From positions 24,345-88,344 of the forward strand of contig CAKTAA010000002.1 of assembly GCA_934526185.1 (NCBI GenBank): a stretch of 64,000 nt of DNA, in the 5' to 3' direction. The notes under the pieces were generated by a model. It saw only the letters and a list, made by a program, of their open reading frames with translations. It was not told where the DNA came from and did not search any database. Position numbers and translations under genes: made by a program. The stretch comes from an uncultured Eubacteriales bacterium (GTDB taxonomy: Bacteria > Bacillota > Clostridia > Oscillospirales > CAG-272). Shown here piece after piece: positions 1 to 19,381 of the stretch. Positions within the stretch are counted from its first letter, which is position 1. Every line of letters begins with the position of its first letter.

Positions 1-1326
1 TGCAGCGTCACCGATATAGCTTGCAAACGACATTCCTCTTCCGTGTATATTGACAATTATTGTATCTTTGATTTCTGTAAAGTATTGAATCCGTACGCTT
101 TCTGTTGAGTTATCGTACATGTTCCATATTAACAATGGATATTTGTTTTCCGGACTGAAATTATCCGGCAAACATACGTAATATTCAATATATGCATCGT
201 CTAATCGGGAGAAATAATAAAGATTTTTAATACCGCCCGAGTTCAGCCATTTATCATACTGTCCTGCCTCAATCAAATCGAGCTTTTTATTAAATTCAAA
301 CCAGGTATAAAAAACCCTGTGCGCAGCTTCGTCATATGTATACGCGTTTTTTAATTGATAGGTAATGTACGATATAGAATCATTGGAAAGCTTGCCGCAT
401 GCCAGTATCTTTTCCGCCCGCTCCTTGACGGGCTGTATATATCCTTTCGGCTTGGTTATATTTAACGGGAAAACAAACACTTTTTCTTCATTTTCGGTTG
501 TCCTGTACCGAATCGTAAACCGTAGATGCTGAAGCGGATTTTCTTGTCTGTATTTTAAATCAGCCACATTAATATTTATATTTTCATACAGCCTTGCTTT
601 AAAGGACAGTATTTTTTCATTTTTAAACGGCTCAATAACATCAATATCAAACACCGTATCGTTTCGCAGATGCACCGCATCAACAGGCGCTAAGGTGAAG
701 CTGAAGAAATCCTTATCATAACAGATTGCACTATAGGATTCATTGGATTCCATGTCAAACGCAGCGGTTATTTTTCCTTTTTCATAATGGTAATTATTAT
801 ATATAATGGATGCATATTTTTTCTTGTGCTCGTACTCAAACGTAGTAATCACAATGGTAGTTTTGAAGAAGGAGAGCGCTTGGTGCTGTTCAATACAAAA
901 GATATTACGTCCCTTTGTCAATCTGATGGTGTAAATAGGACGGCGTTCATGGTATTCCAAGCAGCAGAACGTACACAATTTGGAATTTATCCAAACCCGC
1001 TGCCGTGCGATAGATTCAATTGTAAATGTTACATTTGTGTCTTCATCGCATTCAACCAAAAAGAATGAATATACTTTTGAAATCGGCTCAAACTCAAATT
1101 TGCTGTAGTCAATTACAGATACCCCGGACTCAGTTGAAAAATCCATTATATCTGAGTCAGCAATGTTGCCGCTTATAACCATATCACGGATTTTATCAAT
1201 CGATTTAGGAACGGGAGCGATTTTTTCGAGTTGGAAATCATCGTCCGGAGGTTCTACAACGATTCCCATATATGCCGGATTTATTACACCTTGATTTGCA
1301 TAGTAAGTAATTTTTTCAATGTTCAT
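1..1326 (-). CDS. Large hypothetical protein, N-terminal 442 codons only (gene runs off the left edge). The visible C-terminal portion resembles the lead-in to an alpha/beta-hydrolase (S9-type peptidase/esterase) domain.
   Basis: Absent from the supplied ORF track because it is open at the window edge. I translated the reverse complement codon by codon from ATG 1326 to position 1 and found no stop: MNIEKITYYANQGVINPAYMGIVVEPPDDD ... IIVNIHGRGMSFASYIGDAA. RBS AGGGAGA lies at 1333-1339, 6 nt upstream. The segment YIEYYVCLPDNFSPENKYPLLIWNM...VNIHGRG resembles the region preceding the nucleophile elbow of secreted esterases/peptidases. The functional call is a guess. Confidence 0.6.
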   Translation of the reverse strand, partial: MNIEKITYYANQGVINPAYMGIVVEPPDDDFQLEKIAPVPKSIDKIRDMVISGNIADSDIMDFSTESGVSVIDYSKFEFEPISKVYSFFLVECDEDTNVTFTIESIARQRVWINSKLCTFCCLEYHERRPIYTIRLTKGRNIFCIEQHQALSFFKTTIVITTFEYEHKKKYASIIYNNYHYEKGKITAAFDMESNESYSAICYDKDFFSFTLAPVDAVHLRNDTVFDIDVIEPFKNEKILSFKARLYENININVADLKYRQENPLQHLRFTIRYRTTENEEKVFVFPLNITKPKGYIQPVKERAEKILACGKLSNDSISYITYQLKNAYTYDEAAHRVFYTWFEFNKKLDLIEAGQYDKWLNSGGIKNLYYFSRLDDAYIEYYVCLPDNFSPENKYPLLIWNMYDNSTESVRIQYFTEIKDTIIVNIHGRGMSFASYIGDAA

Positions 1327-1474
1327 CTTTATTCTCCCTGTGTAAATAATACATTGCTGTATGCATTCCGGATTCTTTCTCTTGGTTTTTTGGCTTGTAA
1401 TAGAATAAGATATGCTCTCCGTTTTGCGCACTGTCAGAACCTGTTGCTGCCGTTATTGCCGCGGCAGCCGTTTA

Positions 1475-2536
1475 TTACATCAAATCTCGGTTCGTTTTAA
1501 CTTTTGCCTTAGCACCGTCGGACAGCGACTGATAAAATTTTCCCGAAAAATCTTTATCAAACAAACGTTCCTCGAATGGGACCTCCCATTTTTTTCGTTC
1601 GGATTCGCACAATCCATAGAAGGGCGTGAGATCTGTTGCTTTCATCTTATCAAATAAATCGAGATACTCCGACGTGGTCGGATCGGCAAAAATATAGTTT
1701 GTAAAATACAGACAGTAGTGAATATAATCTGTTACGCCAAGCGTTCGGCACATTCCGGAAAGAAGGGCGGCGGAGGGGCTGCATGAGCGGAGATAGTACA
1801 GGATATCGCACAGGTGGGAAAGCTGCAATCCGCGGTCAGCGATAAGGTAGATGGAATTAAAATCTTTGTAATGATGCAGGCAAAGCGAGATAAACTCCAT
1901 TTCCGGTGAAAGTTTTTGAAAGAGCACACCGCACAGCTCCGCTTTTTCGGTGTGAGATAGCACGAAATCCATGTCGGCTTTCATGCTGCTCTCACCCCAC
2001 ATAATATCAAGATTCACATCCGCCTCGACAAACGGACAAAGCTTTTCGTCGGTTTTCTTGATAAATGGAGCTGTCTGATGGCTCATTGCAGATTGAAAGA
2101 CGAGCTCCCGACGCGTAAATTCTTTGACTTTACCGCCGCAGATTCGCCCCTGAACGAATCCGTTTCCCTTGAGAATATTTTTAACTGTGTCTATATCCTT
2201 ACGGCTGATCAGTATATCAATATCACCGGAGCACCGCATGAACGCATCGCCGTACGCCGCTGCGGAAAGCACGGCTCCCTTTATCACGGCGTATGGAATC
2301 CGCATTTCCTTAAAAGCATAAAACACTTTTTCGCAGGCACGGAACCGCTCATTTACATTGACTCTGCTCATAAATTTTTCGATTGTGACCTTGTTTGTTA
2401 AATCCGTCGAAAGAGGTATTTTCGAGAGCAGGTAAGTACACATATGTCTGTGCAAAATCTCTGATATATCCGTCTTTGGCATCTGTCCTGCAGCGATTTT
2501 GCGCAGCGCGGAAACGATGCTGCTGTAATCACTCAC
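1475..2536 (-). CDS. Nucleotidyltransferase family protein (uncharacterised NTP_transf_5-like type)
   Basis: 353-aa ORF. GTG start overlaps the upstream stop by 8 nt. Motif FMRCSGDIDILISRKDID (G-x-D-x-D nucleotidyltransferase fold signature) is followed by a helical C-terminal region. Same strand as, and coupled to, the radical SAM cluster. Confidence 0.7.
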   Translation of the reverse strand: MSDYSSIVSALRKIAAGQMPKTDISEILHRHMCTYLLSKIPLSTDLTNKVTIEKFMSRVNVNERFRACEKVFYAFKEMRIPYAVIKGAVLSAAAYGDAFMRCSGDIDILISRKDIDTVKNILKGNGFVQGRICGGKVKEFTRRELVFQSAMSHQTAPFIKKTDEKLCPFVEADVNLDIMWGESSMKADMDFVLSHTEKAELCGVLFQKLSPEMEFISLCLHHYKDFNSIYLIADRGLQLSHLCDILYYLRSCSPSAALLSGMCRTLGVTDYIHYCLYFTNYIFADPTTSEYLDLFDKMKATDLTPFYGLCESERKKWEVPFEERLFDKDFSGKFYQSLSDGAKAKVKTNRDLM

Positions 2537-3713
2537 TGATTTTCACCCCATTAGCAGAATAAAAATTCTCAAACCGAGCGTTTTTTTCAGTGCGGCGGTA
2601 AACACCGGCAATATTCCCATATCGCTTTTTTACTTCATCAATAAGAATCTTTTCGAAATCCCTGCCGAATACGCGGCAGGAAACAAAGAAGCTCTCGATT
2701 ACTGCCGGGTCACCCAGGCAAACCACCGCCAAGGCGACGATTCCCATATCGCCGTACTTATCCGAAGCAGAAAGCGAAATTATGCTGTATGAGCTGTCTC
2801 GCATAAGACCGGAGATTTCGTCCGCAGTATATCTCTTGCCGGACAAATTGAACTGGTTTGTGCGCATTGACAGCTCCGACAGCCTCTCCGCTTGGCCGAG
2901 AGCCGCGGTACCGCATTTTACACAGCTCCCGAGCGATGCATTATATTCGGCCACACTGGCACAGCGAAGCTTTTCCTTTTCGCGTTCCTTCTGATCGCGG
3001 TATTGCTTTGTCCGATTGATTTCAGAAGATGTACCGGCAAAAAACGATGCAATTTTTTCAGGAAATTCCCGATCGTCATACGAAACTTTAACAGCTGTCA
3101 CCTCGGGCAGCATAGCGTTTACAAGTCCGATTTCGTAGTCGCTGTCATCTATGAAAACAATGCTGTCCGTTGAAAGATTCAGTTCGCCGGCAATTTCACG
3201 AATGCTGTTTGGCTTGTCACCGTATCCGATTTTGGATATCACAAAATGCTCTGTATTGAGAAGCATATCGGGATTTTTAAAAACCTCCGTTATGATTTCG
3301 GGCTGATTTTTTGAGCACAGGCAAAGAAGTACACCGGCATTGTACAGCTTTATAAGCTCCGCCTGCAATGATTTTTCATCCGTTCCGATATGTATTTCTT
3401 CCTCACCGGCGATACCGTGCCAGAGCACATTATCGCAATCGGTAATCAGCACTTTTTTGAGCGCGGCAGACTGCTCAAAATATTTATCCAGAGTGGCAAA
3501 CAGATGGTCAAGTGTCTCAAAATTTGAAAACACAAGATCGCTGTCAAGCACTTCAATGCCGAACTGCTCCTCGATTGAAACGATAAACTGAATAAATTCA
3601 ATAGATGTGAGTCCGATGCCCAAAAGCGCGGCGCTTCCGGAGAGGCGATTGAGCTCTTCCGTATCCGCACCGGTGACGCTGGCGAGAATGCTTAATATTT
3701 TATACCTGTCCAT
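2529..3713 (-). CDS. Fusion of an acyl/peptidyl carrier protein domain with a FkbH-like HAD-IIIC phosphatase/acyl-loading domain
   Basis: 394 aa. The N-terminal ~80 aa are carrier-protein-like (LLGIGLTSIEFIQFIVSIEEQFG, Ser in the phosphopantetheine position). The HAD motif I follows in its FkbH form (VLITDCDNVLWHGIAGEE), then FIDDSDYE and the C-terminal RTNQFNLSGKRYT signature typical of FkbH/HAD-IIIC proteins. The ATG lies inside the upstream stop region (14-nt overlap), preceded by AGGGAGGA. Confidence 0.75.
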   Translation of the reverse strand: MDRYKILSILASVTGADTEELNRLSGSAALLGIGLTSIEFIQFIVSIEEQFGIEVLDSDLVFSNFETLDHLFATLDKYFEQSAALKKVLITDCDNVLWHGIAGEEEIHIGTDEKSLQAELIKLYNAGVLLCLCSKNQPEIITEVFKNPDMLLNTEHFVISKIGYGDKPNSIREIAGELNLSTDSIVFIDDSDYEIGLVNAMLPEVTAVKVSYDDREFPEKIASFFAGTSSEINRTKQYRDQKEREKEKLRCASVAEYNASLGSCVKCGTAALGQAERLSELSMRTNQFNLSGKRYTADEISGLMRDSSYSIISLSASDKYGDMGIVALAVVCLGDPAVIESFFVSCRVFGRDFEKILIDEVKKRYGNIAGVYRRTEKNARFENFYSANGVKISE

Positions 3714-4734
3714 TCATTTCCTCCCTTATGCTTTTTGTCAAACCGCATCCGACAAACTGTAATTTTCTGAATTCGCAGCCGTCGTCGTCACCGAGCGGAT
3801 TTCCCGTAAGCTGATCCGCATTCGCCATGCATCCTTTGCCGCAGGTATCACGAAGAATACACTTTGAGCACGAAAAATCGGATCCAACGCGCTCCTTTGC
3901 AAGCGACACGATCTTTGCCATTTTATCGTCGAATTCATTTTTATCGAACGAGAGTATATTGCCGACCGTGAATTTCCCGTCGTAAAGACCTTGACACGGC
4001 TGGATTGAGCCGTCAACCTTTATACAGACAGACAAAGTGTGTTCGGCGGAGAAAAGCGGGCACTTCACTGTGCATCTCGGCAGAAACGCTTTACATTCGA
4101 GCTCGGTATTGAGACGTTCGATGAGCTTCAGTGCCGCAAACTTTTCACGGGCAGTCAAGGCTTTATTCTCCCAATCGTCTGATCCGTTTCCTGATCTGTA
4201 GACGTATGCGAACTCCGGCGTGAAGCCGAGTGAACGGGCAAGCAGGTAAAACCTCTCAATATCTTCATAATTGTTCTTCGATATAACCATTTTCAGAAGG
4301 GGATTACCTTCGGTATTCCGTATGATTTGCGCGAACTCCATAGCCTTTTCAAAATTGCCTTTTCCGCGTGTAAGCGCGTTTGTTTCTTCGCATGCACCGT
4401 CAAGACTGATCTGCAGGGTGAGGTTGCTGTGCGAATTTACCGCGTCGGCGAGAGACTTTGTGCCGGTAGTTGCGTTGGTGACAATGCCGAACGAAAGATC
4501 GCTGTGCGTATCGATAAGCGACAGTACCTTGTCAAATTCAGTATGCAGCGTCGGTTCACCGCCCGAAAAAAGAAAACGGCGCGTGCCGAGCGGCAAGAGT
4601 GTTGCTATGATCCCCTCGATTTGAGAAAACGAAAGTTCGCGCCTTAGAAGATTCGTCCCGGAGCGGTTGTAGCAGGTGGCACAGTTCAGGTTGCATTGAT
4701 TTGTAATTTCAATATAGGCAGTCGATATTTTCAT
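3700..4734 (-). CDS. Radical SAM enzyme with C-terminal SPASM domain (peptide-modifying maturase type)
   Basis: 344 aa. CNLNCATC (CxxxCxxC) at residues 14-21, and the FSGGEPTL (GGE) motif. The C-terminal SPASM pattern is DGSIQPC ... CSKCILRDTCGKGC (Cx2Cx5Cx3C) ... C. ATGA start/stop overlap with the PqqD gene. Confidence 0.9.
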   Translation of the reverse strand: MKISTAYIEITNQCNLNCATCYNRSGTNLLRRELSFSQIEGIIATLLPLGTRRFLFSGGEPTLHTEFDKVLSLIDTHSDLSFGIVTNATTGTKSLADAVNSHSNLTLQISLDGACEETNALTRGKGNFEKAMEFAQIIRNTEGNPLLKMVISKNNYEDIERFYLLARSLGFTPEFAYVYRSGNGSDDWENKALTAREKFAALKLIERLNTELECKAFLPRCTVKCPLFSAEHTLSVCIKVDGSIQPCQGLYDGKFTVGNILSFDKNEFDDKMAKIVSLAKERVGSDFSCSKCILRDTCGKGCMANADQLTGNPLGDDDGCEFRKLQFVGCGLTKSIREEMNGQV

Positions 4735-4994
4735 ACTATCAGCACGACTTTCTTCTCTACGGTGTCCGCAAGGAATTCTTCAACATCGGCGCGGATATCG
4801 TCCGGCTCGGCGTCATAGATTTTGCACAGCTTGCCAAGCAGAGCGTCAAGCCCGCACGCTTCGTCGAGACACGTGAGAATATCGATTCCCGTCTCGTCAA
4901 ACAGGTGCGTGTCACCGCTTTCGGGATCGAATACCGCAAGCGACGTTTCGTCGGTCTGAATGTAATCCATTTTGTCATTCTTTTTGTAATGCAT
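4731..4994 (-). CDS. PqqD-family protein (RiPP recognition element / peptide chaperone)
   Basis: The C-terminal 80 aa (DYIQTDETSLAVFDPESGDTHLFDETGIDILTCLDEACGLDALLGKLCKIYDAEPDDIRADVEEFLADTVEKKVV) have the PqqD winged-helix pattern. The track ORF extends to 5144, but that would overlap the peptidase gene. I place the start at ATG 4994 (MHYKKNDKMDY...); ATG 4970 is also possible. Confidence 0.75.
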   Translation of the reverse strand: MHYKKNDKMDYIQTDETSLAVFDPESGDTHLFDETGIDILTCLDEACGLDALLGKLCKIYDAEPDDIRADVEEFLADTVEKKVVLIV

Positions 4995-5097
4995 GATTTT
5001 ACCTGAAACACACGCGAATGATGCGCGGTTTTCTTTCAAGAAAGCTCGGCAAAGAACTATAATAGATTTTACGAATAGAGTTTTTTGCGGAGCTTTT

Positions 5098-5553
5098 TCA
5101 AAAAACAACCGTGTTCTTGTCGTATGCGTTTCTTTTCCTTTCATATTCTTTGTAAATTTCGGTTTTTTTTGTTTTTGACGAGTTAAAGGCGCACTTGTGA
5201 AATTCGCGGTTCACAAGAAGCGACAGCTTTATAAGCTCTGCCGGATAATCTGGCAGAGCTTGTCCGTTTGACAATGCAGCTTTCCCGATTGTCTCTGACG
5301 CAGGAAAATCCTCGAGCCGAAACGCATTGTCACCCTTGCAGAAATATCTGCCGCCGCTGATTTTCAGAAGCCGGTGTACCAAAAGCGTACCCTTGTACAG
5401 AAACACCAGAATATCCCCGACCGCATAGCTGCTTTCCCGCACGACTGTAATGATGTCACCTTCAAAAAGCACCGGATTCATGCTTGAACCGGTCACAGTG
5501 ATTTCTGCAGTCCTGCCGGACGAAAGACGAGCCGCGAGAATTCCTGTCATCAT
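5098..5553 (-). CDS. S24/S26-family serine peptidase (signal-peptidase-I/LexA-like fold)
   Basis: 151 aa. GSSMNPVLFEGDII (the Ser nucleophile box G-S-S-M-x-P), then VHRL and CKGDNA (GDN box) as in S26 signal peptidases. No N-terminal TM anchor is evident. Confidence 0.7.
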   Translation of the reverse strand: MMTGILAARLSSGRTAEITVTGSSMNPVLFEGDIITVVRESSYAVGDILVFLYKGTLLVHRLLKISGGRYFCKGDNAFRLEDFPASETIGKAALSNGQALPDYPAELIKLSLLVNREFHKCAFNSSKTKKTEIYKEYERKRNAYDKNTVVF

Positions 5554-5557
5554 TTTG

Positions 5558-6352
5558 CTATCCGTTTTGTATCACCTCCGCGGCATATGCCATATCGCAG
5601 TATTTCAGACGCACGCAGTTTTCTTTTGCGAGACGCGACATGAGCTTCAGATATTCACCCGTTATCGGATACAGCGTAATCGGCGAGTGAAGCAGTTCGG
5701 TAAGCTTCTCCGTCGTTGTCATCGGCAGAACTGCATTTTCCGATGCAGTTCGCTCGATGAAAAATATCCTGCCGAGCGGAATAACTCTCGATACACAGTT
5801 TTCCGGAGTGAAAACATAACGGCGTGCTTCTTCTTCACCTGTTATGAAAAGCTCTTGCGGGGCAGCGTTGTATTCTCGCAGCACTGAAAGTCCCCCGTCC
5901 CGCAGATGCACCGGAGCGGTACACGGATGAATATCAAAGGTCGAGCGGTCGATAAGAATGCAGTCCTCGGCAACAAATCCGAAGCCAAGACTTAAAAGAT
6001 AGGTACAAAGCGTCGTTTTTCCGGAACTAGAGGACGCAAGAAAAAGGTATGCCCGTCCGCCGTATTCCACTGCCGCACCATGGAGCGCAAGAACGGATTC
6101 GTCATAGCGGTTGTTATCGAACAGATATTGATCTAAAATTCTCATCGGCTGAGTTGTGCGTTTTTTTTCTCCGTCAAGAACAACAGCAAATCCATCTGCG
6201 TTCTGCGTGACTGTTATATCAATTTCCGCTTCCTTTTCCGATTCACTTATGTATTTACCGAACTTAATTCGGAGGAATACGGCAAGTTCAATGCTGTCTG
6301 TTTTGATAGAGTACGATGTTTGATATGGTAAAGCAAGACGCAGTATCGGCAT
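5558..6352 (-). CDS. HPr kinase/phosphorylase-related kinase (HprK C-terminal-domain homologue)
   Basis: 264 aa. LHGAAVEYGGRAYLFLASSSSGKTTLCTYLLSLGFGFVAEDC matches the HprK catalytic core (lHG..v...G.gvLi.G.SG.GKS.l...L...G..lvaDD) with its P-loop. It is the first gene after the promoter. RBS GGAGA is 5 nt upstream. Confidence 0.75.
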   Translation of the reverse strand: MPILRLALPYQTSYSIKTDSIELAVFLRIKFGKYISESEKEAEIDITVTQNADGFAVVLDGEKKRTTQPMRILDQYLFDNNRYDESVLALHGAAVEYGGRAYLFLASSSSGKTTLCTYLLSLGFGFVAEDCILIDRSTFDIHPCTAPVHLRDGGLSVLREYNAAPQELFITGEEEARRYVFTPENCVSRVIPLGRIFFIERTASENAVLPMTTTEKLTELLHSPITLYPITGEYLKLMSRLAKENCVRLKYCDMAYAAEVIQNG

Positions 6353-6385
6353 AGTATTCTCCGTTCAGAAAAAAATGGTAAACAC

Positions 6386-6414
6386 ATTATACAACATAAT
6401 TCACGAATATTCAA
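6386..6414 (-). promoter_or_regulatory. Sigma-A-type promoter of the radical SAM/kinase operon
   Basis: The minus strand reads TTGAAT - 17 nt - TATAAT (revcomp of 6409-6414 and 6386-6391), about 30 nt upstream of the kinase ATG. Confidence 0.6.
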
Positions 6415-6571
6415 CATATATTATTTAGTTGCTGCTGGAAATATTTTTGAGTAACACTTGATATTTTAAATTTACATGCTATTTTCATCATAAATAAGAA
6501 GAGCTAGAAGTTTAGAAAATGGCATCCGTCGAGATCTTCCTTGGGTGGTGATTATTCGCTTTTCGGCAAAA

Positions 6572-6674
6572 GTGGTGCGGCCGATGATAGTCTTTTACGG
6601 AAAGTCTCTATAGGGAAAATTTTGAAAAAAACCTATAGAAAAGTTTATGAATTAACCATCATCGACCGCACCAG
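6572..6674. repeat. Nested inverted repeat (outer 19-nt arms, inner 8-bp palindrome arms)
   Basis: Outer arms are GTGGTGCGGCCGATGATAG (6572-6590) and CCATCATCGACCGCACCAG (6656-6674): 8 + 7 bp with one C:A mismatch. Inner arms are TCTATAGG (6607-6614) and CCTATAGA (6632-6639) around an A/T-rich 17-nt loop. It lies between the divergent operon promoter and the XRE gene. Confidence 0.6.
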
Positions 6675-6731
6675 CTAAAACAAATCAAGGAAAACTGCTA
6701 TCGAATGATTGATTTTTAACGGAAGTGTGAA

Positions 6732-6971
6732 ATGATAAATTATCTACTCTGCGGAGGCGTGGCTGTAAGTTACAAACTTTTTCATTTAATGATCGAGCGG
6801 GATATTGCCAATGCTCAACAAATGTGGGATGCAGACATCCCTACAAATATTATTACAAAATTGAAAAACGGTCAGTATTATAGCCTTGGACAAGGTACAA
6901 GCATCTGCCCCGCCCTAAACTGCGGCGCTGACGATATACTGGAATTTGTGTCGAATGCTCCAAAAGACTGA
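6732..6971 (+). CDS. Small XRE-family helix-turn-helix transcriptional regulator
   Basis: 79 aa. YKLFHLMIERDI...IPTNIITKLKNGQYYSLGQGTSICPALNCGADDILEFV follows the short Cro/C1-type pattern (..L..LM.Er.i....L....gIs..tIskLkNG..vsl.tl.kIC.aLnC...DIlEFv) common on mobile elements and next to R-M genes. Confidence 0.6.
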   Translation: MINYLLCGGVAVSYKLFHLMIERDIANAQQMWDADIPTNIITKLKNGQYYSLGQGTSICPALNCGADDILEFVSNAPKD

Positions 6972-6984
6972 TGGAGGAAAAAGG

Positions 6985-8080
6985 ATATGGACAACCAAAT
7001 ACATAATATAAGTGGGGTATTGCGGGTGACTCTCTGTGTGGCAATTCATGCGTGGCAAATACCGTGATGTTATTCTGCCCATGTCAGTTAATCGCCGCTT
7101 GGACACTATGCTTGAGGGCATCAAGGCTGCGGTTTTCGAAATGAAGAAAAAGTTGGATGAAGTGGGAATCGACAATCAGTGGCCTGCACTCTGCAATGCA
7201 GCAGGACAGGCTTTCTGCAATGATCTACGTTTTTGCTCAGGGATCTTACCAGCAGCACAAAGATATAGACACCCAAGGATGACTTTGAATCTTATTTGGG
7301 CGTTTTTTCCAATGTGCAGAAAATCCTAGAAAAATTCAAATTCCGCAACCAGATTCATTCGATGAACGATGCGGTTATTCTGAGCAGTGTTATTGAGAAA
7401 TTTATCTCCTTAGCCATCAATCTCAGCCCTAATCTGGTTATAAGGACGAAGAGAGAACGATTCTGAGGCATCAGTGTCTGGAAAATCATGGAGCGGGTAT
7501 GATCCTTGAGAGCTCATCCGTAAGTTCAACGAAGAGGCCGGTGTGCACAGGACGCCCCATGATGTTGCGGAACTGGTGGCAGACCTCATCTTTATGCCGG
7601 TCGCCGACCAAATCAAGGATGCAAACCTCTTCCTACTATGACGGAACATGCGGAACCGGCGGTATGCTTACCGTGGTGTAGAACGCTTGCTGACTCTGGG
7701 CGGGGCAAAAAAGTTTCTATCCATCTGTTCGGGCGGGAAATCAACCCAGAGACTTATGTCATCTGTAAGGCAAATATGCTTTTAAAGGGTGAAAGCGAAC
7801 AGGCTGAATACATCATTTATGGTTCTGCGCTTTCTATGGACGGTAATGCCTCCTGGCAGTTTGATTTTATGCTTTCCAATCCTCCTTACGGCAAGAGCTG
7901 GGCAAACCGCCGCTGAAAAGATGTGCGGTAAAAAAGTGATTTTGGACAGCCGTTTTAATGCCTATCTTGAGGGCGGATACCCGCTTACCATGTTTCCGAA
8001 GGGCAGTGATTGGCGTTGCTGTTCCTGCTGAACAATGTTGCCAAAATGAAAAAAGACTCGCTGCCGGCAGCCGCATACGT
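6985..8080 (+). pseudogene. Decayed N6-adenine DNA methyltransferase (type I HsdM-like), multiply frameshifted and 3'-truncated
   Basis: RBS GGAGGA plus ATG 6985. Homology is scattered over three frames: LRGKYRDVILPMSVNRRLDTMLE (7036 frame), KILEKFKFRNQI.., HFTPRDV-like/ADLIFMPVADQIKD, YDGTCGTGGMLTV (SAM-binding motif I, 7499/7638 frames), VSIHLFGREINPETYVICKANMLLKGE, FDFMLSNPPYGKSW (motif IV NPPY), then DGQLLFLLNNVAKMK-like remnants to about 8075. No hsdS or hsdR follows. Confidence 0.8.
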
Positions 8081-8313
8081 CCATGTGGGAAGGTATAGAT
8101 GAAAAGAAAAGCTCTCCCGTGGGATTTCCTGCGAAATTCAGAACAGCGGCTTTTTTACCGGGCAGTACGACAATATCCCGTAACCTTGCCTCTCACTCCG
8201 AAGATCGTCATGCTTCTGTCTGCGTTTTGACGGACTTGCTCCGGTTTTACCGCCGCCAGTTCATGGCGGCGCAGGCATGCGGCACGGGCAAAGGTGAGTA
8301 TATCCGCGTTGCT

Positions 8314-8491
8314 TTATCTTGAAAAGCCATAGTCGCGGGTAACTTCATTTCGGCTTCGCTGAATATCTTTCCGCCGCTGTTCGGAAAGCAGAATCGCCAA
8401 ATCGCCTGCCTTGCAGCCGTAAAGATTACACAATGCGGAATTGGTTTTGCGGGACTTCCTGCACTTGCCGCACCAGAGATTTGTGTTTCAT
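8314..8491 (-). pseudogene. Frameshifted fragment of a small HTH (XRE-like) gene
   Basis: The minus strand gives MKHKSLVRQVQEVPQNQFRIV* in one frame. It continues in another frame as ..KTNSALCNLYGCKAGDLAILLSEQRRKDIQ..*, which resembles the C-terminal half of Cro/C1 HTH proteins (..LC.aL.C...DL). Weak call. Confidence 0.3.
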
Positions 8492-9101
8492 TTTGCACCA
8501 CTCAGAAAAAGAGCGCACCTTGTTTGGGTAGGTAAGTTGACGAGATTTTTAGACAGCTTTCCGGTGCTGTTTTCCCGATTTCAAGGCCTTTTAAAAATTT
8601 CACTCCACTGCCGTTGGCAGTTCCGCTTCTCCAGAAATTTAAAAAATCGCCGGACAATCGTTCTGTTCGTGTTCGCTCCACAGTACGCCGCTCCCGCGCA
8701 TTACCCATGTCGCTCGTCTCTCCCACACCCGGTGGAAAAGACGCACAGTCTTTTCGGGCTTGCTGTGCTGACTTCGAACCTTTTAGCCGCCGTTATCGTC
8801 AAGGCAGGCTGCTACTTTCCACTCCTTTCATCATTCAAACCTCTATCTTTAATATGACGGATGGTGAACTTTCTTAAAAACGCAAAAAAGCGGTGTCCTC
8901 TTATAAGGGGACGCCGCCCGCAGCACCTGTCCTACGAAAGGTTCGAAATTTCGTCAGGCGGCAAGGCTGGGAATCTTCCGAATGGTCCGGCTTGCTTCCA
9001 TTTTTTTCATCGCACTTCCATCTTTGTCTTTTTCAGCTTCATTCTCCGTTGAAGCTTTTCCCGCCTCACTTTTAATATGACAGATATTGAATAAAATGAA
9101 C

Positions 9102-9128
9102 GCGCAGACGGAAATTTTCCGTCTGCGC
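9102..9128 (+). terminator. Palindromic hairpin with T-run (intrinsic-terminator-like) and no intact upstream gene
   Basis: GCGCAGACGGA-aattt-TCCGTCTGCGC followed by ATTTTTCTTTTC. Its core is nearly identical to the hairpin at 10031-10064. Confidence 0.45.
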
Positions 9129-9828
9129 ATTTTTCTTTTCTTATGCCCGCTTCCCCTTCTGCTCTTAACGTCCTTATTAAGCAGAGGGACGTTGTTGGTT
9201 TGTTTTTTATATTGCAAAATAAATTTATTTTTTTCTATTTTTACAAATGTACGGTAGTTTTTAACTGCGATTTTCTATACATTTTTCAAATTGCATGAAA
9301 CAATAATTATATAAATAATATAAATATATTTTCAATACAAACTTTTATCTAAAAATGAGAGATGGTGAACAAAACAGCTCCTTGTATATTTCGAGCTGAT
9401 TCCCCTTCATTGTTACACTTCACAATATTTTTTCAGCATGGAATAAATTACTTCGAAACATTTACTTAATACTGTTCAGCACTGTTCGCTGCTGGTTTCG
9501 TGTTTTTATCAAATTCGCCTTGATCATCAAAGAAAGATGATAATACGCATTCATACCCGTGAAACCAAGCTCCTACTCGATGGCATTTATGGTTGCCTCC
9601 TTTTTTGTCTGGATAAGATCAAGAATTTCAAAACGTTTTTTTCGAGAGGGTATCGCGAAGGCCTCAAGCGCGGCATTCTGTTCTATTGTATCAATGAACT
9701 AATAAATTCATGGAAAAGTCGAGCGTTTTTTTAAAAAGTTAACAGTTTTGCACTAAAAATTTTCGAAACGGGGTTTTATCGCCTGTTTTGAGAGGTAAAA
9801 CGTATTGCGCGAGGCGGAATATAGTGGA

Positions 9829-9971
9829 AAAAATGGGAAAATTAAGAGAAAAAGGGAATGTTTAAAATAAAATCGGGAGAACCTGGCGTTCCGCCAAGGG
9901 GATGGGATAGAAATTTTGGCAGGGATTGGACGAGAGACTGGGGATTGGCGAAATGCCAAGAGGGGATTTCA
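9829..9971 (+). repeat. Degenerate iteron-like array: GGGA(T) motifs with ~19-24 bp spacing
   Basis: GGGA cores start at 9835, 9854, 9875, 9898/9904, 9922, 9941 and 9963. Sub-families are GCCAAG(A)GGGGAT (9894-9903; 9955-9967) and GGGATTGG (9922-9929; 9941-9948). The strand is strongly purine-rich. Confidence 0.5.
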
Positions 9972-10020
9972 AGCATATATAAATAGGAAGCTTGTGGAAG
10001 CCAGCCAGTTCTGGGCTTAC

Positions 10021-10064
10021 ATACAAAACACCCCACCGCAGACGAATTTTCGTCTGCGGTGGGG
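10021..10064 (-). terminator. Probable intrinsic terminator of the sigma-factor gene
   Basis: 15-bp perfect stem CCCCACCGCAGACGA / TCGTCTGCGGTGGGG with a 4-nt loop. On the minus strand it is followed by TGTTTTGTAT. It lies ~180 nt downstream of the stop at 10247. Confidence 0.6.
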
Positions 10065-10246
10065 TACCGTTAAAGCTTGCATCCATCAAATTCGTTTAAC
10101 AAACGAATAGGCCGAACATCTTACCAATGGTAAAGAGGTTCAACCTATTCAAAATAGGTGCACTTGAGCATTCTGTAATCGAACCGTGCACTTCTTTTAG
10201 AGTGACGGTTGTACGCACTTCGTTGTAATTAAAGGCTCGAACCAGC

Positions 10247-11857
10247 CTATTCTAAGTAAATGTGTGCACCAATTGCGGGACTTACTTTAGTTGCAGGAAG
10301 CAAGTAACCGGAATTTAGCGCCTCTGACATAACATATCCGCGACGGAAATAACAAGTTGAAACTGCCAACCTGCATTGATAGATGTCATCTAAAAAGACT
10401 TTAGGAAGATCAGCACAAACCATCCCATAGATCTCATCATACAAGCCTTTCATCATATCTTTTGCACTTTCCGCTAATACCGAGAGCTCAGATACCACGC
10501 TTGTGTCCATATTATTAACCGTATTCCTAATCTCATCCATATTCAGCGTTACAATAGTTGGAATATATGAGTTTTCTGTTTTTTTCAAGTATCCATAATC
10601 TAATAGATTTTTAATAAGCTCACGTTTTCCTTCTACTTTTTTGCCCAACACAATATCGCACAGAACCTGCGATTCTTCATCGGTAAGATAATCCGGTGTG
10701 TTGGCGGAAATACCGTCGAACTCATATCTAAAATGCTGAAATCCGTGATTACTTCCGTGATTTCCAACAAAATTAGGTTCTGTTACATGACAGTCCTGAT
10801 ATCCAATGATGTCCCATCGTCCGTTGTCAGGACGCTTGGTAAAATCACGATTTCTTGGTGCTTTGTATATAAAGTAGTCAAATGCCAGCATGAGAAGCGA
10901 CCATTTCGCACTTTCATAATCCTGATGTGCCCCGTAAAAATTCTTTCCTTGCATTACAAATGCGTCATTCAGGCTATCCACAAAAGTCGTCAACGCTTTT
11001 GTTATCGAAGGCGCAGCAGTTAACCAAGCAATATGAGTTTGTTCTTGTGCAGCGCAGCTTATGATTGGAAAGGACGTTTGATATTTATTCTCGGTTTTTA
11101 TCAAAAATGTTTCACGGGTGAGCCACTCAAGTTCATCTTCCATGTAAGGGAGAGCAATACCTAACTCCAAGGAAAGTTCTTCGGCTTTCGATGGATTTCC
11201 ATATGATTCCAACAGTACGTTTTTGTACAGTTTGTGTTCCATTACGTTGTAGGGCTGATTTTTGTCACCGGGACGAGAGCAATTACTACAAAAAGTTACT
11301 TCATCCGGTTTATAGCTTCTTACTCCAAATTCTCTTGACATATCCATACCTTCTTTCAATATAATTCGTGCGCGGTGAAGTCTTTGTTGAACCGCGCTTA
11401 CCGAAAGTGAGAGCGGCGATGAAATATCGCGAACGCTTTTGTTCTCTAAATAATAGGCGACGACAATGTTGCGATAATCGCTTTTGATGAACGCCAGCTC
11501 CCGCCGAAGCAGAGCCATCTGCTCTGTTTGTATCATTTCATCAAGGGTATTTTCGCTTTCGTCTTTAATCTCAAAATCACTGATATCGGAACCGGTTACC
11601 GATTTGTTTCGATTGTGCCTTTCTTTTGCCCATACCGAATAACGGTTGCGCGCGATCTGCCATATCCATGCTGAAAAGTTTGTAGGAACCGTGCCTTTAT
11701 TTAAAGCTATGATAATCTGGACCGCAATATCCTGCGTCAAATCTTCCGCTTCAATATTACTCCCCGTTTTTTTCAGACAGAAGTAAAACAGCTTTTCCAT
11801 ATAGTTATCGGTAAAATCATTGATATGCCGATCACGCATTCCATTCGCTTCTTTCAT
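10247..11857 (-). CDS. Sigma-70 family (ECF-like) RNA polymerase sigma factor with a ~350-aa C-terminal extension
   Basis: 536 aa. Region 2 (AEDLTQDIAVQIIIAL ... WIWQIARNRY) and region 4 HTH (YYLENKSVRDISSPLSLSVSAVQQRLHRARIILKE) lie within the first ~180 aa. The remaining ~350 aa are an unassigned domain. RBS AGGGGGG. Confidence 0.8.
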   Translation of the reverse strand: MKEANGMRDRHINDFTDNYMEKLFYFCLKKTGSNIEAEDLTQDIAVQIIIALNKGTVPTNFSAWIWQIARNRYSVWAKERHNRNKSVTGSDISDFEIKDESENTLDEMIQTEQMALLRRELAFIKSDYRNIVVAYYLENKSVRDISSPLSLSVSAVQQRLHRARIILKEGMDMSREFGVRSYKPDEVTFCSNCSRPGDKNQPYNVMEHKLYKNVLLESYGNPSKAEELSLELGIALPYMEDELEWLTRETFLIKTENKYQTSFPIISCAAQEQTHIAWLTAAPSITKALTTFVDSLNDAFVMQGKNFYGAHQDYESAKWSLLMLAFDYFIYKAPRNRDFTKRPDNGRWDIIGYQDCHVTEPNFVGNHGSNHGFQHFRYEFDGISANTPDYLTDEESQVLCDIVLGKKVEGKRELIKNLLDYGYLKKTENSYIPTIVTLNMDEIRNTVNNMDTSVVSELSVLAESAKDMMKGLYDEIYGMVCADLPKVFLDDIYQCRLAVSTCYFRRGYVMSEALNSGYLLPATKVSPAIGAHIYLE

Positions 11858-12086
11858 TTTTTCGCCCCCCTTTCATCCATATAGTGTGGTATTTTTCGAT
11901 TTGCTGACAAGATTTTAAATAATTATATCACAAGTTTTCGAAGATTTCATCCCGCATTTGCCGCCGATTTTTATCCTATATATGGATCGTAACAAAAAAA
12001 GAATTATAGAATAACAGACAAAGGAAGCACAGGATCAAGCCGTACTTTCTTCATTTTCTTTAACTGCGCAGTCTCATTGAGAAAAA

Positions 12087-12127
12087 CAACAGCCCCGAAC
12101 GTTTCACCGATTGGTTCGGGGCTGTTG
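12087..12127 (-). terminator. Orphan terminator-like hairpin
   Basis: 14-bp stem CAACAGCCCCGAAC / GTTCGGGGCTGTTG with a 13-nt loop. The minus-strand tail is GTTTTTCTC. No credible gene ends here. Confidence 0.4.
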
Positions 12128-12327
12128 CTTTCTTGAAAAATGATACATAAGCCTTTGTTTGTGGCAGTATAGGGTGATCCGCTCTGTACCGCCACTTCTT
12201 CATACCCCAATTATTCCCGCAGACTTATTTAACAATGTTCAAGAGCAGTTACAGAAAAACAAAAGAGCTGTCGCATAATTCAAAGGACGACTGTACAAAA
12301 GCCTTGGGTTTATTTTGTTTTAGGTAC

Positions 12328-13065: not shown

Positions 13066-13151
13066 GGTGCGGGTAAGAGGACTTGAACCTCCACGAAGTT
13101 GCCCCCACTAGAACCTGAATCTAGCGCGTCTGCCAATTCCGCCATACCCGC
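13065..13151 (-). tRNA. tRNA-Leu (anticodon CAG)
   Basis: The reverse complement folds as a class II tRNA. Acceptor stem GCGGGTA/TACCCGC with encoded ACCA; D-arm GGCGGAATTGGCAGACGC; anticodon arm CTAGA-TTCAGGT-TCTAG (CAG); long variable arm; GGTTCAAGTCC T-loop. 87 nt. Confidence 0.9.
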
Positions 13152-13252: not shown

Positions 13253-13337
13253 TGGTGCGAGAAACGGGACTTGAACCCGTATGGTATTCACCACACGCCC
13301 CTCAAACGTGCGCGTCTGCCAGTTCCGCCACTCTCGC
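13253..13337 (-). tRNA. tRNA-Leu (anticodon GAG)
   Basis: Acceptor stem GCGAGAG/TTCTCGC plus ACCA; anticodon arm CACGT-TTGAGGG-GCGTG (GAG); long variable arm; GGTTCAAGTCC T-loop. 85 nt. Confidence 0.85.
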
Positions 13338-17980: not shown

Positions 17981-19381
17981 ATGGTTATGAAAAATTTGAA
18001 ATATCTTTGGGCCCCGCTCCTTTGCCTCTGTCTGCTTGTTTCCTGTAACACCTTGACAGGGGACGGCGCCGGATCCGACGGAACCACACAGCCGCCCGTG
18101 TCTGACGCAGACTCCGAAACTACGCCCGACACGGATACCGAGACGAGCGAGTCGCAGATTGGAGTAGGAGGCGGTGTGGGGTCGTTAGACATGTATTATG
18201 ACAACCGCGTTTGCGAGTTCACCTACCTTGTTGGCACCTATATGTGGGAGAACAAGGATGCGATTGGCGAAGTCGCCAAAACCTATAGAGAACTGTATCA
18301 GGATAAGCTTTACAAGGACAACGACTATCCGGCATTTTTGGCTTATATTGTTCAAGAGGCGGAAATTCCGCGTGAGGCGTTCGAGGCGTACAATGCTGCT
18401 CTTGCAGAGCGGTCTAGTTCCAGTGTGCTTCCGGACGAGATGATTGATGCGCTGTACAGCACGGATATAAACGAACAGCGCCGTGTATTGAAACACCCGT
18501 ATACCGTTTATTCGGACGGTCATATCTATCGGTTCTATGACCTGGAAAAGCTTTCTTCCGATGAGCTTGCCGCGCTTGACGTGTCGGAGCAGGAATGGGC
18601 AGACTATATCGCAAGGATCGAGGAATACATGCAGGAAAGGCCGAGCGACATGCGCCGTTCAGTGGAATTCCTGCGTCCCCTTGCGGGCGATGCCACACCG
18701 ACAACGACCGGCGCGGCAGAGGTGAGCGGCGCACCTGAGATATCGGGTGAGCCGGAAAGCAGCGAGTCGCAGATTGGAGTAGGAGGCGGTCTGGATCAGT
18801 TTGATCAGCATTATGACAACCGTGTTTGCGGCTTCACCTACATTGGCTATATGTGGGAAAATAAGGCTGCGATTGGCGAGGTAACTAAAGCCTATAGAGA
18901 ATTGTATCAGGATAAGGTTCTCACGGACGACCGTCCGCCGTTTTTGGCCTACGTTGTTCAAGAGGCAGAAATTCCGCGTGAGGTGTTCGATGAATACAAT
19001 ATCGCCCGTGGAGAAGTGTATGGCAGTCAAATCATACTTCCGGATGAAATGGTAGACGCGCTGTACAGCACGGACGTAAACGAGCAGCGCCGTGTTTTGA
19101 AGGGACCGTATTCCATTTATTCGGACGGTCATCTCTACCTGTTCTATGACCTGGAAAAGCTTTCTTCCGATGAGCTTGCCGCGCTTGACGTGTCGGAGCA
19201 GGAATGGGCAGACTATATCGCAAGGATCGAGGAATACATGCAGGAAAGGCCGAGCGACATGCGCCGTTCAGTGGAATTCCTGCGTCCCCTTGCGGGCGAT
19301 GCCACACCGACAACGACCGGCGCGGCAGAGGTGAGCGGCGCACCTGAGATATCGGGTGAGCCGGAAAGCAGCGAGGCGTAA
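17981..19381 (+). CDS. Lipoprotein of unknown function containing an internal tandem duplication of a ~203-aa module
   Basis: Lipobox LLVSC after a hydrophobic signal peptide. Two modules each start SESQIGVGGG... and end ...PTTTGAAEVSGAPEISGEPES. RBS AAGGAGA. Confidence 0.8.
   Translation: MVMKNLKYLWAPLLCLCLLVSCNTLTGDGAGSDGTTQPPVSDADSETTPDTDTETSESQIGVGGGVGSLDMYYDNRVCEFTYLVGTYMWENKDAIGEVAKTYRELYQDKLYKDNDYPAFLAYIVQEAEIPREAFEAYNAALAERSSSSVLPDEMIDALYSTDINEQRRVLKHPYTVYSDGHIYRFYDLEKLSSDELAALDVSEQEWADYIARIEEYMQERPSDMRRSVEFLRPLAGDATPTTTGAAEVSGAPEISGEPESSESQIGVGGGLDQFDQHYDNRVCGFTYIGYMWENKAAIGEVTKAYRELYQDKVLTDDRPPFLAYVVQEAEIPREVFDEYNIARGEVYGSQIILPDEMVDALYSTDVNEQRRVLKGPYSIYSDGHLYLFYDLEKLSSDELAALDVSEQEWADYIARIEEYMQERPSDMRRSVEFLRPLAGDATPTTTGAAEVSGAPEISGEPESSEA
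18146..19375 (+). repeat. Tandem direct repeat, two units (615 and 609 bp), mosaic identity
   Basis: Unit boundaries are marked by AGCGAGTCGCAGATTGGAGTAGGAGGCGGT at 18146 and 18761. The 3' 235 nt of each unit (18532-18766 vs 19141-19375, offset 609) are identical by direct comparison. The 5' ~380 nt are clearly diverged. Confidence 0.9.

Follow-up and report, generated by a model that had tools for sequence, protein, structure and literature searches.

FkbH enzymes divert a glycolytic intermediate into polyketide extender units and tetronate units, and the locus described here raises the question of what such an enzyme, fused to an acyl carrier protein (ACP), does in an operon for peptide maturation. 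The locus lies on the minus strand of a 64,000-nucleotide stretch of contig CAKTAA010000002.1 from an uncultured Eubacteriales bacterium (the whole stretch is hereafter called the window). Its central gene encodes an ACP-FkbH fusion of 394 aa (2529..3713), flanked by genes for a radical S-adenosylmethionine (rSAM)/SPASM enzyme and for a nucleotidyltransferase of family PF14907 (NTP_transf_5). We propose that the fusion is a self-loading glyceryl-S-carrier which, together with the nucleotidyltransferase, supplies a glycerate-derived unit to the peptide product of the rSAM/SPASM-PqqD-S24-HprK-like cassette, a proposal whose chances we judge to be about even. The first part of it, that a glyceryl thioester is probably made on the protein's own carrier domain by FkbH chemistry, is well supported by the sequence; the second, that the C3 unit would be used jointly with the nucleotidyltransferase and decorate a peptide, is suggested by the conserved gene order. 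The parts themselves are known (FkbH, ACP, the rSAM/PqqD core of clusters for RiPPs (peptides made on the ribosome and then modified post-translationally), and the kinase/nucleotidyltransferase pair), while their combination and the fused, portable pair are not described, and the literature searched held nothing linking FkbH, PF14907 or HprK-like proteins to rSAM peptide maturation.

Domains and catalytic residues of the ACP-FkbH fusion

The carrier-FkbH fusion, recognized from motifs in an initial annotation of the window, is genuine. Pfam PP-binding matches residues 5-69 (E 2e-7, 31.6 bits, cutoff 20.8) and the NCBIfam model TIGR01686 'FkbH domain' matches residues 86-392 (E 1.4e-65, 221.6 bits, curated cutoff 146.65), with the HAD-IIIC model TIGR01681 nested in the latter match (residues 87-198, 52.8 bits, cutoff 35.75). 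The carrier domain (residues 1-80; 3474..3713, on the minus strand like all coordinates of the operon given below) contains the motif GLTSIEF with Ser37 (codon 3603..3605). The HAD-IIIC domain (approximately residues 86-225; 3039..3458) contains the motif DCDNVLWHG, which holds D92-C93-D94 (D92 at 3438..3440, D94 at 3432..3434), followed by S134, K167 and D189/D190, and the C-terminal domain (residues 226-394; 2532..3038) contains R284-T285 within the motif RTNQFNLSGKRY and C346 at 2676..2678. Fold knowledge and two weak matches to GNAT profiles suggest that this C-terminal domain is GNAT-like.

The protein was aligned with FkbH reference genes taken from annotated plasmids, each judged by its gene neighbours, to give an alignment of 12 sequences. 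The references included a ZmaN-like FkbH (359 aa) encoded on a Bacillus thuringiensis plasmid between a cyclic-peptide export ATP-binding cassette (ABC) gene and nonribosomal peptide synthetase (NRPS) genes, with a hybrid NRPS/polyketide synthase (PKS) gene further upstream (a locus that we take to be the zwittermicin cluster); the FkbH of a methoxymalonyl-ACP-type locus of Streptomyces canus (3-hydroxyacyl-CoA dehydrogenase, ACP, acyl-CoA dehydrogenase, FkbH); a tetronate-type set with ketosynthase III, ACP and phosphopantetheinyl transferase (PPTase); and the FkbH domain of a PKS from a plasmid of Burkholderia sp. FERM BP-3421 (presumably the FR901464 producer). Invariant positions are D92, D94, S134, N136, K167, D189, D190, R284, T285, D318, G321, G324, S345-C346-R347, R351 and N378, and all four HAD motifs (DxDx(T/V), S/T, K and DD) are among them. 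C346, in the sequence SCRV, is the sole Cys common to all 12 FkbH sequences and is our candidate for the thioester Cys that would carry the (phospho)glyceryl group. The alternative, C93 of the DCDN motif, was rejected as the catalytic Cys: the position is Leu (DLD) in ZmaN-type and methoxymalonyl-type FkbH and is therefore not a conserved thioester site. Ser37 and C346 show no variation among 52 ACP-FkbH family members, nor do D94, S134, K167 and D189; at least 90% of these members have D92 and D190. The modifiable Ser, the catalytic Asp pair and the invariant Cys on which the glyceryl-loading proposal of the initial annotation depended are thus all in place.

In an AlphaFold (AF2) model of the fusion (predicted local distance difference test score, pLDDT, 88.9), Ser37 lies at the N-terminus of carrier helix II, and C346 lies in an 'R-x-x-G-x-G/A'-like loop after strand 337-344 and before helix 353-364, the place at which the pantetheine thioester is held in GNAT enzymes. 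Matches of the fusion in the Protein Data Bank covered the HAD domain only (best 3SLR, BF1531), and no full-length FkbH has been solved.

It is conceivable that the FkbH-like domain does not load glycerate and instead uses another phosphorylated acyl donor, or acts mainly as a GNAT-type acyltransferase/phosphatase on a peptide phosphorylated by the kinase, some other acyl group being supplied by the carrier. Three observations speak for this: FkbH members in sugar loci (L016 and L021; related loci are cited by such L numbers) and BF1531-type proteins have unknown substrates, the subfamily has invariant residues of its own (C93, C131 and C133) that are missing from ZmaN- and OzmB-type proteins, and the HprK-like kinase of the operon could provide a phospho-substrate for the HAD site. 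Nevertheless, the fusion retains every residue common to the compared FkbH proteins of PKS and NRPS loci, which we presume to be glyceryl loaders, the DCDN variant also occurs in the PKS FkbH domain L034, and the fusion and its nucleotidyltransferase are found without a kinase in L048 and L050. We therefore regard an activity on something other than glycerate as distinctly unlikely.

Organization of the operon

The fusion gene belongs to a single tightly packed operon occupying window positions 1..6414, in which six genes follow each other in the order HprK/ScmC-like, S24 peptidase, PqqD, rSAM/SPASM, ACP-FkbH and NTP_transf_5. A promoter-like site, TTGAAT-17-TATAAT (6386..6414; a consensus match only), lies 5' of the first gene (5558..6352), which encodes an HprK-related/ScmC-like P-loop protein of 264 aa with the Walker A sequence SSSSGKTT. 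The matches of this protein to TIGR04352 (E 2.5e-10) and TIGR04249 (E 2e-6) fall short of the cutoffs, and in the gene calls of the loci the HprK/ScmC-like proteins have a weak match to PF27840 ScmC. The second gene (5098..5553) encodes an S24/S26 signal-peptidase-like serine peptidase of 151 aa, identified by profile matches, and the third a PqqD-family peptide-binding protein, i.e. a RiPP recognition element (RRE) protein (4731..4994; PF05402 E 2.4e-11; TIGR04353 44.8 bits, cutoff 35). The listed open reading frame (ORF) of the PqqD gene reaches 5144, and its probable start is Met51 at position 4994, because homologue alignments begin at residues 49-51 and the gene call in the identical contig L042 agrees. 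In several loci, including L003, L013, L047 and L048, the S24 peptidase and PqqD form one fused protein. The fourth gene (3700..4734) encodes the radical SAM/SPASM enzyme of 344 aa (PF04055 E 1.2e-20), whose best NCBIfam matches are MftC, StsB and ScmE/F, each below cutoff; it is related to peptide maturases while scoring under every equivalog cutoff. The cassette thus has both a PqqD-like RRE and an rSAM enzyme with the similarity profile of a SPASM-type maturase, two features looked for in RiPP clusters of the rSAM/SPASM type.

The translational coupling of the fusion gene on both sides, as originally annotated, is borne out by the coordinates. The TAA stop codon of the rSAM gene (ending at 3700) overlaps the ACP-FkbH ATG at 3713 by 14 nt, with a GGGAGG Shine-Dalgarno sequence 6 nt upstream of that ATG, and the TGA stop codon of the ACP-FkbH gene (ending at 2529) overlaps the GTG start codon of the nucleotidyltransferase gene at 2536 by 8 nt. 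An identical 8-nt overlap is found in the gene calls of L039, L045, L047 and L048. The nucleotidyltransferase itself (1475..2536; 353 aa) is a Pol-beta-type enzyme matching PF14907 with E 1.4e-28.

The operon extends further than first described and continues past the nucleotidyltransferase into a seventh gene starting at 1326. This gene, absent from the ORF list, passes the window start, so that positions 1..1326 encode the N-terminal 442 aa of an 857-aa protein. Window positions 1..2600 are 99% identical to contig L041 over 2600 nt, and the full-length protein of L041 has a GQCSGG (GxSxG) alpha/beta-hydrolase motif with weak S9-peptidase and polyhydroxybutyrate-depolymerase matches. The 857-aa protein is confined to the window's own clade (L039-L041 and L044). 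As to a leader peptidase and an exporter, the window has the S24/S26-like peptidase, and ABC exporters are found downstream in L041, where two such genes follow the 857-aa gene past the window edge. Between the window and L039 the ratio of nonsynonymous to synonymous substitution rates (dN/dS) is 0.06-0.22 for all seven genes, with PqqD the lowest at 0.06, and the enzymes are therefore still maintained under purifying selection.

Gene neighbourhoods of the fusion in related bacteria

Uncultured Clostridia of the gut and rumen, among them Oscillospiraceae and Acutalibacteraceae, are the source of the close homologues of the fusion (45-98% identity). In all, 3433 clusters (50% identity) match at E<=1e-30; only approximately 35 of the top 150 representatives are ACP-FkbH proteins of about 395 aa, and the other clusters of this top 150 are mostly PKS megasynthases or ~570-aa proteins whose N-terminal domain is another one. 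Next to the ~395-aa family, the nearest relatives include the PKS megasynthase FkbH domains P0251, P0261 and P0263 (33-36% identity). The six-gene cassette recurs in about 18 Clostridia lineages, and homologues of at least 45% identity and the same architecture sit with the rSAM/PqqD genes in about 18 of 22 lineages. All six genes are present in 12 of the 15 closest genome loci as well as in L039, L045 and L047, and the contig-truncated L001 and L020 are consistent with the cassette. In these lineages close homologues do not, then, reside in polysaccharide loci, an arrangement that would have spoken against the original RiPP interpretation; only distant FkbH proteins (26-34% identity, about 570 aa, other architecture) occur in sugar or polysaccharide loci, those of Bacteroidetes and Acidobacteriaceae.

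The initial annotation drew attention to the rSAM, kinase and nucleotidyltransferase genes as neighbours of the fusion. These neighbours are real, but it had been missed that the invariant partner is the nucleotidyltransferase and not the rSAM or the kinase, and the pair also occurs without rSAM or kinase. Sellimonas L010 is the one locus examined in which the ACP-FkbH gene is not directly followed by the nucleotidyltransferase gene; elsewhere the 8-nt overlap is mostly present too, and the two form a near-invariant, portable pair. In L048 the pair lies on a conjugative element with an S24-RRE fusion, a BtrH_N-like protein and ABC genes, and both rSAM and kinase are absent. In L050 it stands with two tryptophanyl-tRNA synthetase (TrpRS) paralogues, a glycosyltransferase-3 family protein (PF00591), an rSAM/SPASM enzyme and HAD hydrolases, and there is no RRE. 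A split form of the module, with the gene order NTP_transf_5, VOC, ACP, FkbH and BtrH_N-like, is found on Clostridium perfringens plasmids (L035 1558..5769) and in Acetatifactor (L018 6676..10826); it consists, besides the nucleotidyltransferase, of a VOC/glyoxalase-like protein, a stand-alone ACP, an FkbH of 512-538 aa and a protein with a weak match to BtrH_N, a domain that comes from an ACP-dependent acyltransferase. The Sellimonas fusion (L010) lacks NTP_transf_5 and lies in a sugar-type cluster (phosphoketolase, GT28, PHP).

This versatility raises the possibility that the pair, with two ABC exporters, is an autonomous module that makes or exports something other than a peptide (a small molecule containing glycerate, a glycolipid or a nucleotide conjugate, for instance), its rSAM/PqqD neighbourhood reflecting a shared non-ribosomal product or mere co-mobility. 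The changed partners in L048 (S24-RRE, BtrH_N-like), L050 (TrpRS paralogues, GT3, Hydrolase_3) and L010 agree with this, as does the split version in C. perfringens and Acetatifactor; moreover, the two sub-blocks of the cassette are divergent in L008, two ABC exporter genes part them (between rSAM and ACP-FkbH) in five loci, and the window keeps its enzymes under selection while having no precursor gene. We nevertheless think an autonomous module unlikely, in view of the co-occurrence of the PqqD/rSAM/S24 block in those ~18 of 22 lineages, the 14-nt gene overlap in the window, the S24-RRE fusion, a peptide-binding module, kept even in the rSAM-less L048, and the position of PqqD as the most constrained gene of the window clade.

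Some of the related loci have further features. The L050 cluster (1..12245) has a full TrpRS copy scoring above the trpS cutoff, maybe a self-resistance gene, and a second, divergent TrpRS-like protein; its HAD hydrolases number two, and it also has two ABC exporters. The split module of Acetatifactor adjoins a B12-rSAM gene and two ABC genes. The cassette adjoins prophage genes (terminase and portal; holin and amidase) in L045/L046 (1..3556) and L047 (1..767), and in L049 (12990..21197) it lies inside a conjugative element (ArdA, TraG/VirD4-like, TrbL); such neighbours suggest that the cassette travels as cargo of mobile elements. No relative was found in the IMG/VR viral contigs. A reading as anti-phage defence was rejected, PADLOC having returned only generic rSAM/viperin similarity.

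The PF14907 nucleotidyltransferase

PF14907 proteins are common in lasso peptide and other RiPP clusters. The Pol-beta signature residues G87, S103, D105, D107 and D173 are invariant among 50 PF14907 sequences, and the G[SG] motif, the DxD pair and the third carboxylate expected on a nucleotidyltransferase fold are all present. In structural comparison the predicted model (pLDDT 95.3) has as its nearest solved folds the MenT-type tRNA nucleotidyltransferase toxins (MenT1), ANT(2''), LnuA and FKRP. ANT(2'') and LnuA are antibiotic adenylyltransferases, and FKRP transfers ribitol-phosphate from CDP-ribitol. With fold matches of this kind, both adenylylation of a hydroxyl and transfer of a phospho-alcohol are possible reactions for the PF14907 enzyme. 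In the biosynthesis of the lasso peptide pseudomycoidin, the nucleotidyltransferase PsmN is needed to add a hexose to a Ser that has been phosphorylated by the HprK-type kinase PsmK (PMC6993621). By analogy, PsmN is the only functional precedent we met for the role that the nucleotidyltransferase may have here.

Precursor-like peptides

Clustering of all ORFs of 18-130 aa across 17 loci revealed a family of precursor-like peptides of 36-49 aa with a 'WKKP' leader, an AAA motif, a core containing Ser and Cys, and an FR or FK end (for example MKKLWKKPVCTTMAAQTLSNHIKAAAWSGEGICDFEDFR). The core is short, with conserved Ser and Cys and a basic C-terminus. The peptides are encoded in nine loci (L003, L006, L008, L011, L012, L013, L045, L046 and L047; e.g. 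L047 5405..5515, minus strand), always directly downstream of a gene for a ~350-aa protein with a C-terminal ArsR-type HTH_20 domain. No NCBIfam model matches them, and the leader has a faint match to the paeninodin family. The N-terminal 'W-x-K-P-x-(V/L)' recalls both PqqA ('MWKKP...') and the leader motif through which lasso precursors bind PqqD-type RREs, and an A-A-A stretch is the kind of site cut by signal-peptidase-type enzymes; the S24/S26-like peptidase of the cassette may therefore cleave after AAA. The existence of this peptide family supports the RiPP interpretation of the cassette as a family, and in that respect the initial annotation of a RiPP-type operon was apt; as a description of the window alone it goes too far, the window having no precursor gene of this kind.

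Proposed mechanism

The mechanism that we propose for the self-loading carrier follows the FkbH/OzmB/ZmaN paradigm, in which OzmB acts via a phosphoglyceryl-S-enzyme (review PMC9057759). From it and from the gene context we infer the substrate (1,3-bisphosphoglycerate), the acceptor, the order of the steps and the roles of the kinase-like protein and the nucleotidyltransferase. In the first step, Cys346 of the GNAT-like loop would form a thioester with the acyl group that it accepts from 1,3-bisphosphoglycerate. In the second, the HAD-IIIC domain would strip the 3-phosphate, with D92 as nucleophile, D94 as acid/base, and S134, K167, D189 and D190 completing the site. In the third, the phosphopantetheine arm that Ser37 of the N-terminal carrier bears would receive the glyceryl group in cis. 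The resulting glyceryl thioester would then act jointly with the PF14907 nucleotidyltransferase, to which the fusion is translationally coupled, and serve as donor in tailoring what the peptide-maturation cassette produces. The most plausible product in the related loci is a short peptide, with core Ser and Cys, released after AAA from the 'WKKP'-leader precursor, and the transfer might fall to the GNAT-like domain, the nucleotidyltransferase or the ScmC-like protein.

A tentative and rather doubtful extension of this scheme is that the cassette makes a new kind of RiPP, with an rSAM-cross-linked core of 12-13 residues and a glycerate-derived unit donated by the self-loading ACP-FkbH, with the PF14907 enzyme as an obligate partner. 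The unit might be an N-terminal glyceroyl cap, or it might be attached by a phosphate link to the conserved Ser. In a bolder version, the carrier Ser or the tethered glycerate would itself be the substrate of the Pol-beta-type enzyme, a parallel being the MdcG/CitX holo-ACP synthases; alternatively, it might build a glyceryl-nucleotide that mimics a seryl-adenylate. If true, this would be the first FkbH-dependent RiPP tailoring, extending FkbH chemistry to ribosomal peptides; the ACP-FkbH/PF14907 pair would gain its first biochemical role and PF14907 a testable function, and a compact, mobile module for C3-acyl donation would be defined. The cassette is widespread in gut Clostridia, frequently adjoins genes of prophages or conjugative elements and, with 6-9 genes, is small enough for direct heterologous reconstitution.

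Several points weigh against a glycerate-decorated peptide as the product. The cassette is without a recognizable acyltransferase, ketosynthase or oxidoreductase to consume glyceryl-ACP, and sequence does not tell substrate specificity. A tblastn search of the 64-kb window with approximate Sfp and AcpS queries, a weak test, gave no significant match to a PPTase. The ACP-FkbH/NTP_transf_5 pair is not RiPP-specific, as L048 (without rSAM and kinase), L050 (without RRE) and the lone fusion of L010 attest. Searches of the 64-kb window for a precursor gene, with two hidden Markov models (HMMs) of the peptides in six frames, including one built on the nine related peptides, and with a W.KP motif scan, were negative, and neither the ORFs 5' of the first gene nor the ORF clustering across loci yielded a conserved small ORF in the window. 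The 85% relative L039 holds only a peptide pseudogene (2189..2300, minus strand), so classified because of a TGA at a Trp (TGG) position and a TAA at a His position, in a locus whose HTH_20 gene and enzyme genes are all intact. The window clade thus either has its precursor gene at another place in the genome or acts on a different substrate.

The missing precursor also suggests that the window copy could be an orphaned, decaying cluster without a product, its regulator and precursor genes lost. A remnant of the HTH_20 (ArsR-type) gene, which adjoins the cassette in relatives, is indeed found with in-frame stops at 9440..9695 on the minus strand (50% identity over 86 aa by tblastn, E 5e-17), some 3 kb away from the cassette's first gene, and the restriction-modification genes that adjoin it, between the remnant and the cassette, are broken: a type I restriction-modification methyltransferase gene (N6_Mtase, NPPYG; 6990..8500, plus strand) is split into several short ORFs and is an apparent pseudogene. 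The peptide pseudogene of L039 points in the same direction. Decay of the cluster as a whole is nonetheless very improbable in our judgement: all seven genes are intact and 99% identical across independent metagenome samples, the dN/dS values against the 85% relative are those of maintained genes, and the precursor could lie elsewhere in the genome. After the HTH_20 remnant there is a 21-aa ORF (9345..9410, minus strand; MKGNQLEIYKELFCSPSLIFR) ending in FCSPSLIFR, which was examined as a candidate precursor and rejected, the peptide HMM not matching it; at its C-terminus it bears a loose resemblance to the C....FR ending of the precursor-like peptides.

Comparison with known systems

The fusion is like FkbH, OzmB and ZmaN, glyceryl-ACP synthases on the route to (methoxy/hydroxy)malonyl-ACP, in having a HAD-IIIC plus C-terminal domain, a TIGR01686 match above cutoff, the invariant residues and a carrier as acceptor. 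It differs from them in that the carrier is fused at the N-terminus, which is a minority architecture, in an identity of only 25-28%, and in a peptide-maturation context without dehydrogenases, O-methyltransferase or PKS. With the tetronate-type and PKS loading-module FkbH proteins (RkD/Tmn16 type; BryA and the FR901464 loader are further PKS loading-module examples) it shares an FkbH domain with a dedicated ACP, and the DCDN motif in the case of L034. These proteins, however, begin with an additional domain of about 200 aa or belong to a megasynthase with the ACP downstream, and they feed a FabH-like or ketosynthase enzyme, a consumer not found in the window cassette.

Among RiPP systems, the kinase/nucleotidyltransferase tailoring of lasso peptides (PadeK of paeninodin; PsmK and PsmN of pseudomycoidin) shares with the cassette an HprK-family protein, a nucleoside triphosphate transferase, a PqqD-type RRE and an ABC exporter, and the precursor leader of the related loci has a faintly paeninodin-like start. 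A lasso cyclase (Asn-synthetase-like C protein) and a B2 cysteine protease are absent among the cassette genes of the window and of all related loci, which have an rSAM/SPASM enzyme and an S24 peptidase instead, and here the nucleotidyltransferase is coupled to the carrier-FkbH fusion. The SynChlorMet (Scm) cassette and HPr-rel-A system resemble the operon in a ScmC-/HprK-like protein, a PqqD-like protein (TIGR04353 above cutoff) and ScmE/F-like rSAM/SPASM enzymes, whereas the HprK and rSAM matches found here are below the equivalog cutoffs. Both are in-silico NCBIfam/TIGRFAM systems, themselves uncharacterized, and to our knowledge they have not been described with an FkbH or carrier protein. 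ACP-dependent acylation of RiPPs is known from goadvionin (the GNAT enzyme GdvG) and the lipolanthines, in which a carrier-tethered acyl group is passed to a ribosomal peptide by a GNAT-fold catalyst. There the chains are long, PKS- or fatty acid synthase-derived, and the GNAT is separate, whereas in the scheme proposed here the polypeptide with the GNAT-like domain would itself produce the acyl group, a C3 hydroxy acid.

Other features of the window

Apart from the operon, the ORF at 17981..19381 contains two tandem copies of about 600 bp (18146..19336, plus strand) that are 80-94% identical at a spacing of 606-615 bp and therefore represent an internal protein repeat. Two tRNA genes on the minus strand (13068..13151 and 13256..13337) are the sole Rfam matches at gathering threshold in the window.

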